Below, piece after piece: positions 1 through 47,249 of a DNA stretch of 64,000 bases. Origin of the DNA: Thermoprotei archaeon. Its GTDB lineage: Archaea > Thermoproteota > Thermoprotei > QMSL01 > B3-G16. The position numbers were made by a program, and so were the translations under genes. The notes under the pieces are model-generated. The model saw only the letters and a list, made by a program, of their open reading frames with translations. It searched no databases and was not told the origin of the DNA. The stretch is taken from the NCBI GenBank assembly GCA_021162845.1, contig JAGGXX010000048.1, forward strand, positions 13,397 to 77,396. The letters run 5' to 3'. Positions within the stretch are counted from its first letter, which is position 1; each line of letters starts with the position of its first letter.

Positions 1-161
1 TGCGGTATCCGAGACACCGCACTGACTAGATCAACTAGGTTATAGATCTGAGCGGCTAATAAAACTTACTTAGCAGACTTAAATGAGGGAAAATTAAATA
101 AGACCTCTATAGCTAGGATCAGTATGGAGGGCCCGTAGTTTAGCCAGGCAGAATGGCGGGC

Positions 162-180
162 AGAACCTTGGTTCCCGCAC
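162..180 (+). other. tRNA-Trp intron 1 (19 nt), non-canonical position 32/33
   Basis: Relaxed BHB (HBh' type): helix GCGG/CCGC, 3-nt bulge GCA, helix GAAC/GTTC with loop CTTG, then 3' bulge ACT. Cleaving after the 2nd bulge nucleotide on both sides removes 19 nt and creates U33. Confidence 0.55.
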
Positions 181-185
181 TCCAG

Positions 186-215
186 ATCGGTCCCTATAGT
201 TTGGGGCTAAGAGAC
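186..215 (+). other. tRNA-Trp intron 2 (30 nt), canonical position 37/38
   Basis: Flanked by A on both sides (1-nt positional ambiguity). Internal helix GTCCC/GGGGC; anticodon region CTCC pairs partially with AGAG of the intron. Removal gives anticodon loop CTCCAGA closed by GCGGG/CCCGC. Confidence 0.55.
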
Positions 216-477
216 ACCCGCTGGCCGGGGTTCAAATCCCCGCGGGCCCACCATGCTATTTTTGTCGAGTTCATGCTAAATTAAAGGGCTTCAAGGCACC
301 AGAAGCTCTTTACCCCGAGAGGAGCCCAAATTGCTAGATTAGGCCCCTATTTCAACGGGTATCAGGTAAGCTAGTGGTATGAACTTTGATGTGCCATAAC
401 GGCTTTTGATAAAAATTTAGGGGGACGCAGGGGCTCATTATGATTAACTTGATAATGGGCTACGAGGTGAATGACCA

Positions 478-9720: not shown

Positions 9721-9835
9721 TCATTATGATCGCGAGAATTCTCCTCTAGAACTTAGCCTTTAAGGTAATTTTGAGAAAAACTTTCGAGGACGATTCTTTA
9801 TCGATAAAGAATGATAATCAATAGCGAATTCGTGG

Positions 9836-9927
9836 TGGGGCCGCCCGGATTTGAACCGGGGTCACGGGGACCCAAACCCCGCAGTCCTCTGGGACGGATG
9901 CGCCCTTCCAGGCTAGCCTACGGCCCC
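9836..9927 (-). tRNA. tRNA-Pro(TGG) with non-canonical intron of about 19 nt near the D-arm/position 26
   Basis: Reverse complement: acceptor GGGGCCG/CGGCCCC + A, T-arm CCCGG-TTCAAAT-CCGGG, anticodon arm CGGGG-TTTGGGT-CCCCG (TGG). An extra 19 nt (hairpin GTCC-CAGA-GGAC flanked by CGCA/TGCG) lies between the D-loop and the anticodon stem. Confidence 0.65.
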
Positions 9928-12195: not shown

Positions 12196-12294
12196 TGGAG
12201 CCCCGGCCGGGATTCGAACCCGGGACCACGGGCTTTTACGCCCTTCATCAAAGGCTTTACAAGGCCCGCGCTCTGCCTACTGAGCTACCGGGGC
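12196..12294 (-). tRNA. tRNA-Thr(TGT) with 23-nt intron, CCA encoded
   Basis: Reverse complement: GCCCCGG-TA-GCTC AGTAGGCA GAGC-G-CGGGC CTTGTAA [AAGCCTTTGATGAAGGGCGTAAA] GCCCG-TGGTC-CCGGG TTCGAAT CCCGG-CCGGGGC-T-CCA. Confidence 0.8.
12235..12257 (-). other. tRNA-Thr intron (23 nt, canonical 37/38, flanking A-run gives a few nt ambiguity)
   Basis: Sits between the anticodon loop and the 3' strand of the anticodon stem. Internal helix GCCTT(T)/AAGGGC. The H helix is not canonical. Confidence 0.5.
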
Positions 12295-12365: not shown

Positions 12366-13400
12366 TTAAAGATCCCAGTATCTCCTCAGAAACCCCTTTA
12401 CTTCGTTTAAGAATGAACTGAACGTGGACCTAAGCGATGATCTCGTCATGGAATATCGCTCTACTATATCTACGTTAAGGAGGCCTTTTATCACGTTAAG
12501 GGAGCTTTCAGCTAACGCGTTTAAGTCATAACCGCCTTCTAATATAAGGCTTATACCTCTGACCTCCTTAATTTCCTCTACCAATATTTTACATAGCTTC
12601 CAGAAGATAGACGATGATAAGTTTAAGTGCGCAAGGGGATCGTTCATGTGGGCATCAAAGCCACAGCTTATGAGGAGGAGCTCTGGCTTATATTCTTTTA
12701 ATATGGAGATGGCGATATCGTAGGCTCTTAGGTACATGTCATCTGCTATATTGGGGAAGAGGGGGATGTTCACATTATACCCTTCTCCTTCGTCTTCTCC
12801 CACCTCTGTATACCATCCCGTCCCGGGATATATCCCCCATTCATGTAATGAGATGTAGAGCACCGAGGGGTCATCATAGAATATCTCCTGCGTACCATTG
12901 CCATGATGTACGTCCCAATCCAATATCGCGATCCTCCTCGCATATCCCTTAGCTAGAGAGTCCCTTGCGGCTATGGCTATGTTATTGAGTAGGCAGAAGC
13001 CCCCAGCCCTGACCTTAGAGGCATGATGACCAGGGGGTCTTATGAGGGCAAACGTGTACTTTAACCCCTCCTTAACCACCGCTCGAGCGGCTCTCAACGC
13101 CCCGCCAGCTGCTAGTCGTGCTACTTCGAAGCTCTCCTGACAAAGGTAGGTATCTAAGTCGAGCCATCCACCGCCTTTTGCACAAAGATCCCTAAGCGAT
13201 TCTATGTATCTGAGGTCGTGTACCACGCTCAACTCCTCTATCGTGGCCACGTAAGGCTCTAACGGGTACACTAGGGACCATAATGGGCTTCTCCTAAGCG
13301 CTTCATATATGATCTCTAATCTCCTAGGATGCTCGGGGTGCTCCCCTGGAGGTCTGTGTAACGAGTAGGTATTGCTGTAGATAACTCCTATTCGCGTCAT
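12366..13400 (-). CDS. histone deacetylase / acetoin utilization AcuC family deacetylase
   Basis: LDWDVHHGNGTQ (HDAC Zn/active-site motif), GFCLLNN, and the arginase-deacetylase fold pattern. Confidence 0.8.
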   Translation of the reverse strand: MTRIGVIYSNTYSLHRPPGEHPEHPRRLEIIYEALRRSPLWSLVYPLEPYVATIEELSVVHDLRYIESLRDLCAKGGGWLDLDTYLCQESFEVARLAAGGALRAARAVVKEGLKYTFALIRPPGHHASKVRAGGFCLLNNIAIAARDSLAKGYARRIAILDWDVHHGNGTQEIFYDDPSVLYISLHEWGIYPGTGWYTEVGEDEGEGYNVNIPLFPNIADDMYLRAYDIAISILKEYKPELLLISCGFDAHMNDPLAHLNLSSSIFWKLCKILVEEIKEVRGISLILEGGYDLNALAESSLNVIKGLLNVDIVERYSMTRSSLRSTFSSFLNEVKGFLRRYWDL

Positions 13401-24399: not shown

Positions 24400-24493
24400 G
24401 ATTCCTTGGTTAGAAGAGTGAACTAAGAGAGGTGAGTAAGCCAGGAGTTCAGCTCATGTACGATGAGAGGTGTCATGTATGTTTACGCCTAGT

Positions 24494-25227
24494 ATGGGCT
24501 ACGATAGTCATCCCTAAGGGGTGACCGTAAGAGGGCTATAACGATATTCTCCCCTGATGGTAGGCTATTTCAAGTTGAATACGCCTCAGAAGCCGTAAGA
24601 AAGGGACTAACGGCATTGGGTATTAGATGCAAGGAGGGCGTCATTCTCGCAGCTGAGCGAAGGGAGTTCACGCCTTTAATGGAACCCGTGGATAAAATCT
24701 ACTCGATAGATGAGCACATAGGCCTCGTATTCTCAGGGCTTCCTTCTGACGCCAGGGTCCTTATAGATAGAGCACGCATTGAAGCACAGATAAACAGGCT
24801 CGTTTATGATGAGCCTATCAGCGTGGAGTCCTTAACTAAGACCATATGCGATATGAAGCAGGTCTACACACAACACGCGGGTGTAAGGCCCTTCGGCGTA
24901 GCCTTTATAATAGCTGGAATTGACTATAACGGCCCTCTTCTCTTTGGCACGGATCCCTCCGGGGCATATAGGAAATATTATGCACATGCAATAGGTGCAG
25001 GGGAGCAGACCGCTAGGGAGATACTCGAAAAGGAATATAGGCGCGATATGGCTCTCTCGGACATCATCGTGCTTTCATTGAAGATCCTCGATAAAGTGAT
25101 TGAAGGGGGAGTTGAGAGCTTTAAGGTGGAGATGGGCGTCGCTGATGTAAAGAGCCGCAGATTTAAGAAATTATCACAGGAGGAAATAGAGAGATATATC
25201 AGGACTTACCGAGGCCTTAAATCCTAA
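24494..25227 (+). CDS. psmA: proteasome alpha subunit, two exons (join 24494..24505, 24532..25227) after removal of a 26-nt BHB intron
   Basis: Exon 1 ATG GGC TAC GAT (MGYD) in frame 2, exon 2 AGG GCT ATA ACG ATA TTC TCC CCT GAT GGT.. ([22 protein letters not shown]..) in frame 1. Together they give the universally conserved proteasome-alpha N-terminus [22 protein letters not shown]. Unspliced, the first in-frame Met is 40 aa downstream at 24616 and an in-frame TAA lies in the 26-nt insert. Confidence 0.75.
24506..24531 (+). other. predicted BHB-type (HBh') mRNA intron in psmA, 26 nt
   Basis: Helix TACG(24500-03)/CGTA(24526-29); 5' bulge AT|A; helix GTCATCCC/GGGGTGAC (8 bp, one U-G) with loop TAA; 3' bulge AG|A. 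Cleavage after the 2nd bulge nucleotide, as in the tRNA-Trp intron 1 here, joins GAT|AGG in frame. Length is 26 nt (not a multiple of 3) and the insert contains a stop. Confidence 0.7.
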
Positions 25228-46592: not shown

Positions 46593-47249
46593 CTAAACAG
46601 GGTAAAAGCTTTCCTTAGCTTCATTCTTCGTAATCACTAATGTGTCAACACCATCCCCGCTTATAGCATCTCGCGAGATAGCGCTCTTTACAGCCCTCAC
46701 TGCTATTTCCTCGGCCTCTTTTACTGAGAGCTCCTCCTTATAGGCGTTTTCAATAATACCTATGGCTATCTGAGCGCCCGAGCCTACCGCGGCGTATTTA
46801 TCCTCTATGAGTGAGCCGAGCGGATCTAAGACGAAGATATGAGGGCCTTCTTCGTCAACTCCACCTAGTACAGTCTCGGCTATGTAAGGGAAGTACCTCT
46901 GATTGAAGAGTATTATCGAGAGGAGCTTAGCTGCCGCCCTTATGGGCATCAGCCTATTATGATCTAGCTCGTAAAGCCTAGCCTCCGCTGCCAGAGTCCT
47001 CGCTATCGCCTGCATATCAGCGATTATCCCCGCACAAGCTATGCCCATCCTATTGTTTATCTTAAAGAGCTTTTTACCAGCCTTACTGATAAGAGCAAAG
47101 CCATAGGATACTCTTTTCTCCGAAGCTAGCACTACGCCTTCCTTCGTCGCTAGCCCGACCACTGTCGCACCTGGCATTGGAATGCCCAGGTACTGCTCCC
47201 TACGTGAATCAGTAGGTAAATTATAATTATATGTCATTATGATAAACAC
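46593..47249 (-). CDS. psmB: proteasome beta subunit, probably non-catalytic (Ala at position 1)
   Basis: ..PGATVVGLATKEGVVLASEKRVS aligns to TTTVGI... with Ala in place of Thr1. Confidence 0.75.
   Translation of the reverse strand: MFIIMTYNYNLPTDSRREQYLGIPMPGATVVGLATKEGVVLASEKRVSYGFALISKAGKKLFKINNRMGIACAGIIADMQAIARTLAAEARLYELDHNRLMPIRAAAKLLSIILFNQRYFPYIAETVLGGVDEEGPHIFVLDPLGSLIEDKYAAVGSGAQIAIGIIENAYKEELSVKEAEEIAVRAVKSAISRDAISGDGVDTLVITKNEAKESFYPV

Follow-up and report, generated by a model that had tools for sequence, protein, structure and literature searches.

Structure of the interrupted tRNA-Trp gene

We analysed a transfer RNA (tRNA) gene near the start of a 64-kb stretch of contig JAGGXX010000048.1 from a Thermoprotei archaeon; the whole of this stretch is referred to as the window. 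The gene at positions 129–253 of the plus strand very probably encodes a tRNA-Trp(CCA) precursor interrupted by two introns, located between tRNA positions 32 and 33 and between positions 37 and 38, and the decision for this two-intron model rests on comparative data. The parts of the gene, and of other interrupted genes in the window, are listed in Table 1. Excluding the terminal CCA, the gene is 122 nt long and the predicted spliced product is 73 nt. The spliced anticodon arm, GCGGG-CUCCAGA-CCCGC, would consist of a 5-bp stem and a 7-nt loop with U33, the anticodon CCA and a purine at position 37. The identity elements of archaeal and eukaryal tRNA-Trp are A73 and the G1-C72 pair, and both are present (A at position 250, and G129-C249). 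No second tRNA-Trp gene was detected within the 64-kb window.

The Rfam tRNA model RF00005, searched with permissive filters, covered positions 129–250 from end to end (model positions 1–71 of 71). The score was 47.2 bits (gathering score 29), the E-value was 2.5e-9 for the local search and 5.8e-7 when the whole window was searched, and the alignment assigned a 55-nt insertion to the anticodon loop. When positions 162–180 and 186–215 were removed in silico, the resulting 76-mer was called tRNA-Trp(cca) by ARAGORN. The 122-nt gene, the D-loop AGCCAGGCA, the loop CUCCAGA and A73, as well as the coordinates and other features listed in a preliminary description of this DNA, can all be read from the sequence.

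The putative TATA box upstream of the gene is preceded by a purine-rich stretch at positions 85–93 resembling a B recognition element, and A/T-rich TATA-like boxes were also present upstream of two orthologous tRNA-Trp genes described below (L033 and L125). Oligo-T terminates archaeal RNA polymerase, and a T5 run, likely a termination signal, was present downstream of the gene. The genomically encoded CCA is shared with most of the listed tRNA-Trp orthologs from Thermoproteota, and is absent from the Nanoarchaeota genes. The TATA-like box, the CCA and the T5 run frame a plausible transcription unit. In the passages of PMC3218864 on T. pendens tRNA genes, the distance from promoter to tRNA is 30–49 nt; the spacing of the putative TATA box fits this distance.

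Table 1. Parts of the tRNA-Trp gene, its putative transcription signals and other interrupted genes of the window
Feature	Position	Strand	Length	Sequence	Description	Basis
Whole tRNA-Trp(CCA) gene	129–253	+		GGGCCCGTAGTTTAGCCAGGCAGAATGGCGGGC / AGAACCTTGGTTCCCGCAC / TCCAG / ATCGGTCCCTATAGTTTGGGGCTAAGAGAC / ACCCGCTGGCCGGGGTTCAAATCCCCGCGGGCCCA CCA	Predicted exon / intron / exon / intron / exon, CCA	
Exon 1	129–161	+		GGGCCCGTAGTTTAGCCAGGCAGAATGGCGGGC	tRNA positions 1–32: acceptor 5' strand GGGCCCG, U8 A9, D-arm GUUU-AGCCAGGCA-GAAU, G26, anticodon-stem 5' strand GCGGG, C32	Rfam alignment
Intron 1 (predicted)	162–180	+	19 nt	AGAACCTTGGTTCCCGCAC	Between C32 and U33; HBh' motif	
Exon 2 (micro-exon)	181–185	+	5 nt	UCCAG	U33, anticodon C34 C35 A36, G37	
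Intron 2 (predicted)	186–215	+	30 nt	ATCGGTCCCTATAGTTTGGGGCTAAGAGAC	Canonical 37/38 site; relaxed bulge–helix–bulge motif	
Exon 3	216–250	+		ACCCGCTGGCCGGGGTTCAAATCCCCGCGGGCCCA	A38, CCCGC, variable loop UGGC (4 nt), T-arm CGGGG-UUCAAAU-CCCCG, acceptor 3' strand CGGGCCC, discriminator A73	Rfam alignment
3' CCA	251–253	+		CCA	Encoded in the genome	Read from sequence
Putative archaeal TATA box	94–101	+		TTAAATAA	28–35 nt upstream of mature 5' end	Read from sequence
T5 run	259–263	+			6 nt past CCA; likely archaeal transcription termination signal	Inferred
tRNA-Met or Ile2 (CAU)	949–1037	−	Intron 14 nt		Canonical intron at 37/38; full hBHBh' (H 4/4, h' 2, h 5)	
Probable tRNA-Pro(UGG)	9833–9927	−	Intron 19 nt	Intron gggcgcatccgtcccagag	HBh' intron at junction of D-loop and D-stem (about 21/22)	
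tRNA-Thr(UGU)	12199–12294	−	Intron 23 nt			
psmA (proteasome alpha-subunit)	24479–25227	+				
Insert in psmA	24506–24531	+	26 nt	AGTCATCCCTAAGGGGTGACCGTAAG	After ...MGYD, with in-frame stop	

Comparison with other tRNA-Trp genes

For comparison, we used the loci from a scan of a genome collection (at least 120 loci), biased to the acceptor strand GGGCCCG, together with a metagenome scan; figures of distribution are lower bounds. Among the matches listed, tRNA-Trp genes without introns were those of Pyrobaculum oguniense TE7, several Vulcanisaeta, a Caldivirga, Thermoproteaceae and Thermoproteales metagenome-assembled genomes (MAGs) and Nanoarchaeota; a single intron near 30/31 was present in Acidilobaceae and Desulfurococcales, and a single intron at 37/38 in Thermoproteus sp. 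CP80. Both insert sites of the window gene were found, within the same list, in Thermoproteaceae archaeon S141_100 (L033) and Thermoproteales archaeon T2 (L082), both MAGs, so that the layout 32/33 plus 37/38 occurs in at least two of roughly 40 species-level tRNA-Trp genes in this pattern-biased scan. The preliminary description had called an intron at 32/33 rare: the site is indeed uncommon, but it is not unique, being shared by L033 and L082 and, in the passages of PMC3218864 that treat it, being the junction of the split tRNA-Gln(UUG) of Nanoarchaeum equitans.

In a MAFFT alignment, the window gene was collinear with seven intron-less tRNA-Trp genes, and the only length differences were two insert blocks at the proposed sites. 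The micro-exon UCCAG was invariant across all aligned tRNA-Trp genes. The spliced product was identical to the intron-less tRNA-Trp of Nanoarchaeota YN1 at 66 of 73 positions without gaps, with 97% identity over the 35 nt of exon 3 (216–250), and to that of P. oguniense TE7 at 64 of 74 positions.

The metagenome scan yielded an ortholog from a different species (L125), with 67% nucleotide identity in a neighbouring transporter gene, different DNA upstream and a rearranged gene order. The exons of the window gene and of L125 were identical at 33/33, 5/5 and 37/38 positions (the last including the CCA, 216–253), giving 75/76 in total, and the sole difference lay in the variable loop. Identity fell to 15/21 in intron 1 and 25/30 in intron 2 (40/51 in total), and the divergence begins and ends at the proposed exon–intron boundaries. 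The micro-exon was identical at all five positions in L125, L033 and L082. The isotype Trp(CCA) and the positions and lengths of the two introns, as put forward in the preliminary description, are thus borne out by the orthologs, by the alignment and by the ranking of models given below.

Splice motifs of the two introns

Bulge–helix–bulge (BHB) motifs were scored in a strict register, in which each 3-nt bulge is cut between its second and third bases and a 4-bp helix separates the bulges. This scoring, combined with constrained folding, replaced unconstrained minimum-free-energy folding of the precursors, which proved unreliable for BHBs.

For intron 1, the central helix H is formed by G27-G30 and c175-c178 with all four pairs, flanked by the bulges G31 C32/a162 and a179 c180/U33 (the slash marks cleavage). 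The inner helix h' pairs 163–166 with 171–174 (GAAC/GUUC, 4 bp) and closes a CUUG loop, and the outer helix amounts to only 1 bp, which gives the HBh' form. The central helix was complete (4/4) in all four orthologs, namely the window, L125, L033 and L082. The inner helix covaried among them, being GAAC/GUUC in the window, GAUU(G)/(U)AAUC in L125 and CGGC/GCCG in L033 and L082, and all four h' pairs changed on both sides. When the four distinct sequences were aligned to a covariance model, 96.9% of the pair cells of intron 1 were paired, compared with 24–62% in slid-partner controls, and the single unpaired cell was an alignment artefact of the longer L125 loop. The covariation score for these four sequences was 0.604 against a shuffle mean of 0.307. 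The HBh' assignment of this 19-nt intron, already proposed in the preliminary description, agrees with these pairings and compensatory changes. The CCGC in the 3' part of intron 1 (175–178) mimics the 3' strand of the anticodon stem, so that the BHB of intron 1 and the true anticodon stem would compete for G27-G30.

For intron 2, the outer helix is the anticodon stem itself (27–31/39–43, 5–6 bp), and the bulges are A36 G37/a186 on the 5' side and a214 c215/A38 on the 3' side, the latter a proper 3-nt bulge. Three of the four central pairs can form (C32-g213, U33-a212 and C34-g211), with C35×a210 mismatched, and the inner hairpin pairs GGUCCC with GGGGCU (189–194/203–208). In L125, intron 2 has the same architecture, with the mismatch at C34 (C34×A) and a G.U pair of the hairpin changed to A-U. 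In L033, the intron at this site is 13 nt long, and its central helix is complete (4/4) once intron 1 is removed.

A further complementarity was observed within the precursor: the GGCUAA of intron 2 (205–210) is perfectly complementary to the UUAGCC of the D-arm (140–145), with one wobble in L125 (GGCUAG), and this pairing drives some minimum-free-energy folds. It is probably coincidental, since about two such 6-mers are expected by chance at this length.

Alternative models of the locus

The consistency of a hand-made fold is weak evidence at this locus, because the strong acceptor, D and T arms allow ARAGORN to call dozens of isotypes. When every deletion of 8–70 nt was made (5,481 variants), ARAGORN -i returned Phe, Pro, Trp, Gln, Thr, Ser and many others, and the program was set aside as a non-discriminating arbiter. 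BHB-like motifs with a 4/4 central helix are also frequent by chance in this GC-rich sequence (46 candidates in about 110 nt). A permissive two-insert matcher applied to the loci of the scan falsely fitted about a dozen one-intron Met, Ile and Arg tRNAs as two-intron tRNA-Trp; these fits were discarded, and two-insert calls were kept only for genes without a simpler model. We then compared models by enumeration. Single-intron models never restored U33 or had a BHB (0/18 in each of the window, L125 and L033), and they imply the anticodons GAA, GAU or CGG in genes that are otherwise 90–99% identical. Of the 5,202 two-intron models enumerated, 50 yielded a 5-bp stem, U33 and a purine at 37 in the window, and the highest rank in BHB quality fell in the window, L125 and L033 alike on 32/33 plus 37/38 (GCGGG-CUCCAGA-CCCGY).

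Two different isotypes have to be weighed against tRNA-Trp. ARAGORN -i called the unspliced gene tRNA-Phe(gaa) i(37,49), that is, tRNA-Phe(GAA) with a single 49-nt intron at 165–213 in the anticodon loop, which keeps a 5-bp anticodon stem. A call of another isotype by a tRNA-finding program is what the preliminary description had named as contrary evidence, and such a call was formally obtained; the model behind it, however, is next to impossible. Its loop, CAGAACA, has A33 and C37 in place of the near-universal U33 and purine 37, its boundaries have no BHB (central helix 1/4, no inner helix), and its 'anticodon' is not conserved: GAA in the window becomes GAU in L125, whose tRNA body is 99% identical, and CGG in L033, where the identity of the body is about 90%. 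The body, moreover, aligns with tRNA-Trp genes, and ARAGORN does not discriminate in this case. The only near-tie in the enumeration was tRNA-Gln(UUG), with introns of 38 nt (162–199, at 32/33) and 11 nt (205–215, at 37/38) around a micro-exon UUUGG (200–204). It was the runner-up in both the window and L125, its loop would be CUUUGGA, and with central helices of 3/4 and 4/4 its summed score equals that of the tRNA-Trp model. Its inner helices, however, are essentially absent (h' of 1 and 0, against 4–5 for intron 1 of the tRNA-Trp model), and no equivalent exists in L033 or L082, which have the same tRNA body. UUUGG also falls in the part that diverges between the window and L125, with a 2-nt indel just upstream, and the body is collinear with, and 86–90% identical to, intron-less tRNA-Trp genes. 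The chance that the gene encodes this tRNA-Gln appears vanishingly small. A decaying, non-functional tRNA-Trp pseudogene, in which two insertions had accumulated and the BHB-like pairings were coincidental, would agree with the failure of default tRNA finders to report the gene and with the 46 chance motifs mentioned above. This explanation is very improbable: the exons are nearly invariant between two species with diverged flanks and introns, a pattern characteristic of purifying selection acting on the spliced tRNA, compensatory changes maintain the intron 1 helix, and the layout persists in L033 and L082. The putative TATA box upstream, the encoded CCA and the T-run downstream, together with the lack of another tRNA-Trp gene in the window, likewise speak against decay.

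The same mature tRNA-Trp could also arise from cuts shifted by 1 nt (intron 1 at 31/32, 161–179, and/or intron 2 at 38/39, 187–216) or from removal of intron 2 before intron 1. By sequence alone, the shifted cuts are equivalent, with an ambiguity of 1 nt at each boundary (C161 = C180 and A186 = A216), but the BHB register resolves them in favour of 32/33 (central helix 4/4 against 2/4 at 31/32) and 37/38 (3/4 against 2/4 at 38/39). As for the reverse order, the central helix of intron 2 can form in the primary transcript of the window and L125, with c180 replacing C32, and with the cloverleaf arms fixed the BHB state of intron 1 and the anticodon-stem state are isoenergetic in the window (−44.7 and −44.8 kcal/mol). 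In L033, by contrast, intron 1 ends in G, so that the central helix of intron 2 is complete only after intron 1 has been removed, and the BHB state of intron 1 is the optimum, more stable by 12.8 kcal/mol (−55.8 vs −43.0 kcal/mol). Taken as a group, these variants are improbable. Several observations weigh against the two-intron tRNA-Trp model itself. The covariation rests on four distinct sequences only, of which L033 and L082 are near-identical; in intron 2, only three of the four central pairs form, both in the window and in L125, and a 1-nt bulge is needed for the inner helix. When the complete precursor of the window gene was folded by unconstrained free-energy minimisation, the BHBs did not appear. 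Pairing between introns 1 and 2 gives a fold that lies about 3 kcal/mol below either of the BHB states. In addition, a Pfam scan detected no tRNA-intron endonuclease domain in ten window open reading frames (ORFs) of 183–233 aa.

Proposed order of splicing

Under the tRNA-Trp model, the gene would be transcribed from the TATA-box promoter and terminated at the T-run. Intron 1 would then build its own splice motif, in which its CCGC pairs with G27-G30 and the 4-bp intron hairpin closes without a real outer helix. Excision of intron 1 would free G27-G31 to pair with 39–43 as the true anticodon stem, which would in turn serve as the outer helix of a near-canonical BHB for intron 2 at 37/38. As expected from the known archaeal pathway, an EndA with relaxed specificity, of the (alpha-beta)2 or epsilon2 type, would cleave the precursor, and an RtcB-type ligase would join the exons. 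The final product would be a 76-nt tRNA with the loop CUCCAGA, A73 and G1-C72.

The removal of intron 1 before intron 2 is favoured on structural grounds, because the two states are isoenergetic in constrained folds of the window precursor and the intron 1 state is optimal in L033. Sequential removal is described as a requirement for closely spaced archaeal tRNA introns in the relevant passages of PMC8450103. Excerpts of PMC5829648 state that non-canonical introns are cleaved only by the (alpha-beta)2 and epsilon2 forms of EndA, and those of PMC4090602 set out an archaeal tRNA splicing pathway of endonuclease cleavage followed by RtcB ligation. By sound extension of this literature (PMC5829648, PMC4090602), a relaxed-specificity endonuclease would be needed for tRNA-Trp.

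Other interrupted genes in the window

All four tRNA genes in the 64-kb window are interrupted, with Rfam scores of 45–61 bits. At default settings, the Rfam gathering thresholds reported two of the four and ARAGORN only one, with a nonsensical anticodon; the tRNA-Trp gene was overlooked by both. For tRNA-Thr(UGU), an A-run makes 37/38 and 38/39 equivalent in sequence; the BHB register, in which all four central pairs form (two of them G.U) and the inner helix has 6 bp, places the intron at 38/39, not 37/38. The probable tRNA-Pro(UGG) gene was called '???(ccca)' by ARAGORN and reached 45 bits in Rfam with permissive filters only. Its intron has a complete central helix (CUGG/CCAG, 4/4) and an inner helix of 4 bp, and all four differences from the L125 ortholog lie inside the intron segment. 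The spliced D-stem would contain a C12×A23 mismatch, and a deletion shifted by 2 nt would give a perfect D-stem with no BHB. In L125, the tRNA-Trp and tRNA-Pro-like genes lie in tandem on one strand (12517–12743, minus strand) with only 7 nt between them (CCA-TGATTCA-GGGGCC), an arrangement that points to co-transcription. In the window, they lie on opposite strands at a distance of 9.6 kb.

BHB introns are rare in protein-coding genes, cbf5 being the known case. The insert in psmA has a BHB core with a complete central helix (UACG/CGUA, 4/4), the bulges AU/A and AG/A, and an inner helix of 8 bp, and its removal restores the reading frame of a 241-aa protein with a conserved N-terminus. This insert looks more interesting than the tRNA-Trp finding. 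Judging from the sequences of the window, relaxed or non-canonical BHB splice sites are a general trait of this genome, because all four tRNA genes are interrupted, one of them by an HBh' intron in the D-arm, and psmA carries a BHB insert. Among the six introns of the window, pairwise similarity was not significant after multiple testing (best p = 0.01 and 0.036 over 15 pairs), and the idea of a family of introns spread by 'transposition' was dropped.

A run of ORFs on the same strand follows psmA (about 24.5–29.1 kb, plus strand) and resembles, by position, the archaeal exosome/proteasome gene cluster, the usual content of which we take to be psmA, an SBDS-like gene, Rrp4/41/42, L37ae and a Brix-like gene. 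A second proteasome-family gene (Pfam PF00227) was located at 46593–47249 on the minus strand.

Affiliation of the host

The preliminary description had linked the tRNA-Trp introns with Thermoproteales, an attribution that the protein matches do not support. A helicase encoded in the window was 100% identical to an NCBI protein labelled 'MAG: Thermoprotei archaeon', and its next relatives, at 73% and about 61%, are unclassified. Further named relatives belong to Geothermarchaeota, Nezhaarchaeales, Bathyarchaeia, Methanomethylicia, Promethearchaeota and Njordarchaeota; no Thermoproteales name appeared among the top 120 matches of this helicase, which is one protein and not a phylogeny. The Vulcanisaeta, Caldivirga and Pyrobaculum loci showed no synteny with the window, with one shared gene about 48% identical at the protein level. 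A separate exact-protein look-up of the helicase gave no match, and two other window proteins had matches only on metagenome scaffolds of ENA. L125, from a sister species, and a same-species contig (L126) both come from an assembly of Guaymas Basin sediment. From its sequences, the host appears to belong to an unclassified lineage within Thermoprotei, with no support for a place in Thermoproteales.

Relation to known systems and implications

The surveys behind the multi-intron class of archaeal tRNA genes are reportedly those of Sugahara et al. (2007/2008) and Marck & Grosjean (2003). Multi-intron tRNA genes and non-canonical BHB introns of the Pyrobaculum and Thermofilum type are described for Crenarchaeota and Thermoproteales in passages of PMC4090602, PMC4033280 and PMC8450103, and a median intron length of 15 nt is given in an excerpt of PMC3218864. 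As in these multi-intron tRNAs, the window gene combines a canonical intron at 37/38 with a non-canonical HBh' intron, both short (30 and 19 nt), and the introns are so close that one BHB would be completed only after the other has been removed. Unlike the classical Thermoproteales examples, the gene belongs to an unclassified Thermoprotei lineage, and for tRNA-Trp the combination of 32/33 and 37/38 is uncommon. The gene belongs to an established class of archaeal tRNA genes that carry several introns, non-canonical BHB introns among them, and that are well known from heat-loving archaea, so the result is a solid annotation, not a discovery.

The closest counterparts in layout are L033 and L082. 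In these genes and in the window, the 19-nt intron at 32/33 consists of A, a 4-bp hairpin with a 4-nt loop, CCGC and AN, and downstream of it come the micro-exon UCCAG and, at 37/38, the second intron. In contrast, their intron 1 is identical to that of the window at only 9 of 19 positions and is unrelated except for the exon-forced CCGC, their intron 2 is 13 nt long, not 30 nt, with a perfect central helix, and the tRNA body is about 90% identical. Acidilobaceae and Desulfurococcales tRNA-Trp genes share the same body (GGGCCCGUAG...CUCCAGA...) and likewise have a short BHB intron of non-canonical type just 5' of the anticodon; theirs is a single intron at 29/30-30/31, not 32/33, and none is present at 37/38. 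With the split tRNA-Gln(UUG) of N. equitans, the window gene shares a BHB-processed junction at 32/33. The former is made by trans-splicing of two separately transcribed halves, whereas the window gene is contiguous, would be spliced in cis and has a different isotype.

The tRNA-Trp intron of the euryarchaeal Haloferax type encodes a box C/D guide RNA according to excerpts of PMC4090602 and PMC3218864. The window gene is of the same isotype and likewise has an intron at 37/38, but its introns are 19 and 30 nt long and lack a C or D box. Neither a C/C' box (RUGAUGA) nor a D/D' box (CUGA) was found in AGAACCUUGGUUCCCGCAC or AUCGGUCCCUAUAGUUUGGGGCUAAGAGAC, and the introns are also too short, so that they cannot encode a guide small RNA of the Haloferax type.

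The layout recurs with unrelated introns in two distant lineages of Thermoproteota, the Guaymas-associated Thermoprotei and L033/L082. This recurrence raises the thought, which we regard as unlikely, that the 5-nt anticodon micro-exon between the introns was selected as a device and did not arise by accidental gain of introns. By mimicking its partner, intron 1 would sequester the 5' strand of the anticodon stem, making the two splice motifs mutually exclusive. If the idea were true, simultaneous cutting of both introns would lose the 5-nt exon, which would force strictly ordered splicing; such ordering would be a maturation checkpoint for the only Trp decoder, or the layout would shield the DNA of the anticodon loop from integrating elements.

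The mechanism itself is not new: multi-intron tRNAs, non-canonical introns and sequential removal have been described since 2003–2008 and are handled by tRNAscan-SE 2.0. For this organism, automated annotation of the MAG could wrongly report that a Trp decoder is absent, and its tRNAs are probably under-called. With the present findings, the host range of tRNA genes rich in introns, and of BHB splicing in its relaxed form, includes a lineage of unclassified Thermoprotei that occurs in sediments of the Guaymas Basin as well. The introns of tRNA-Trp together with the BHB-type insert of psmA indicate that the splicing endonuclease of this organism may act on several types of substrate.

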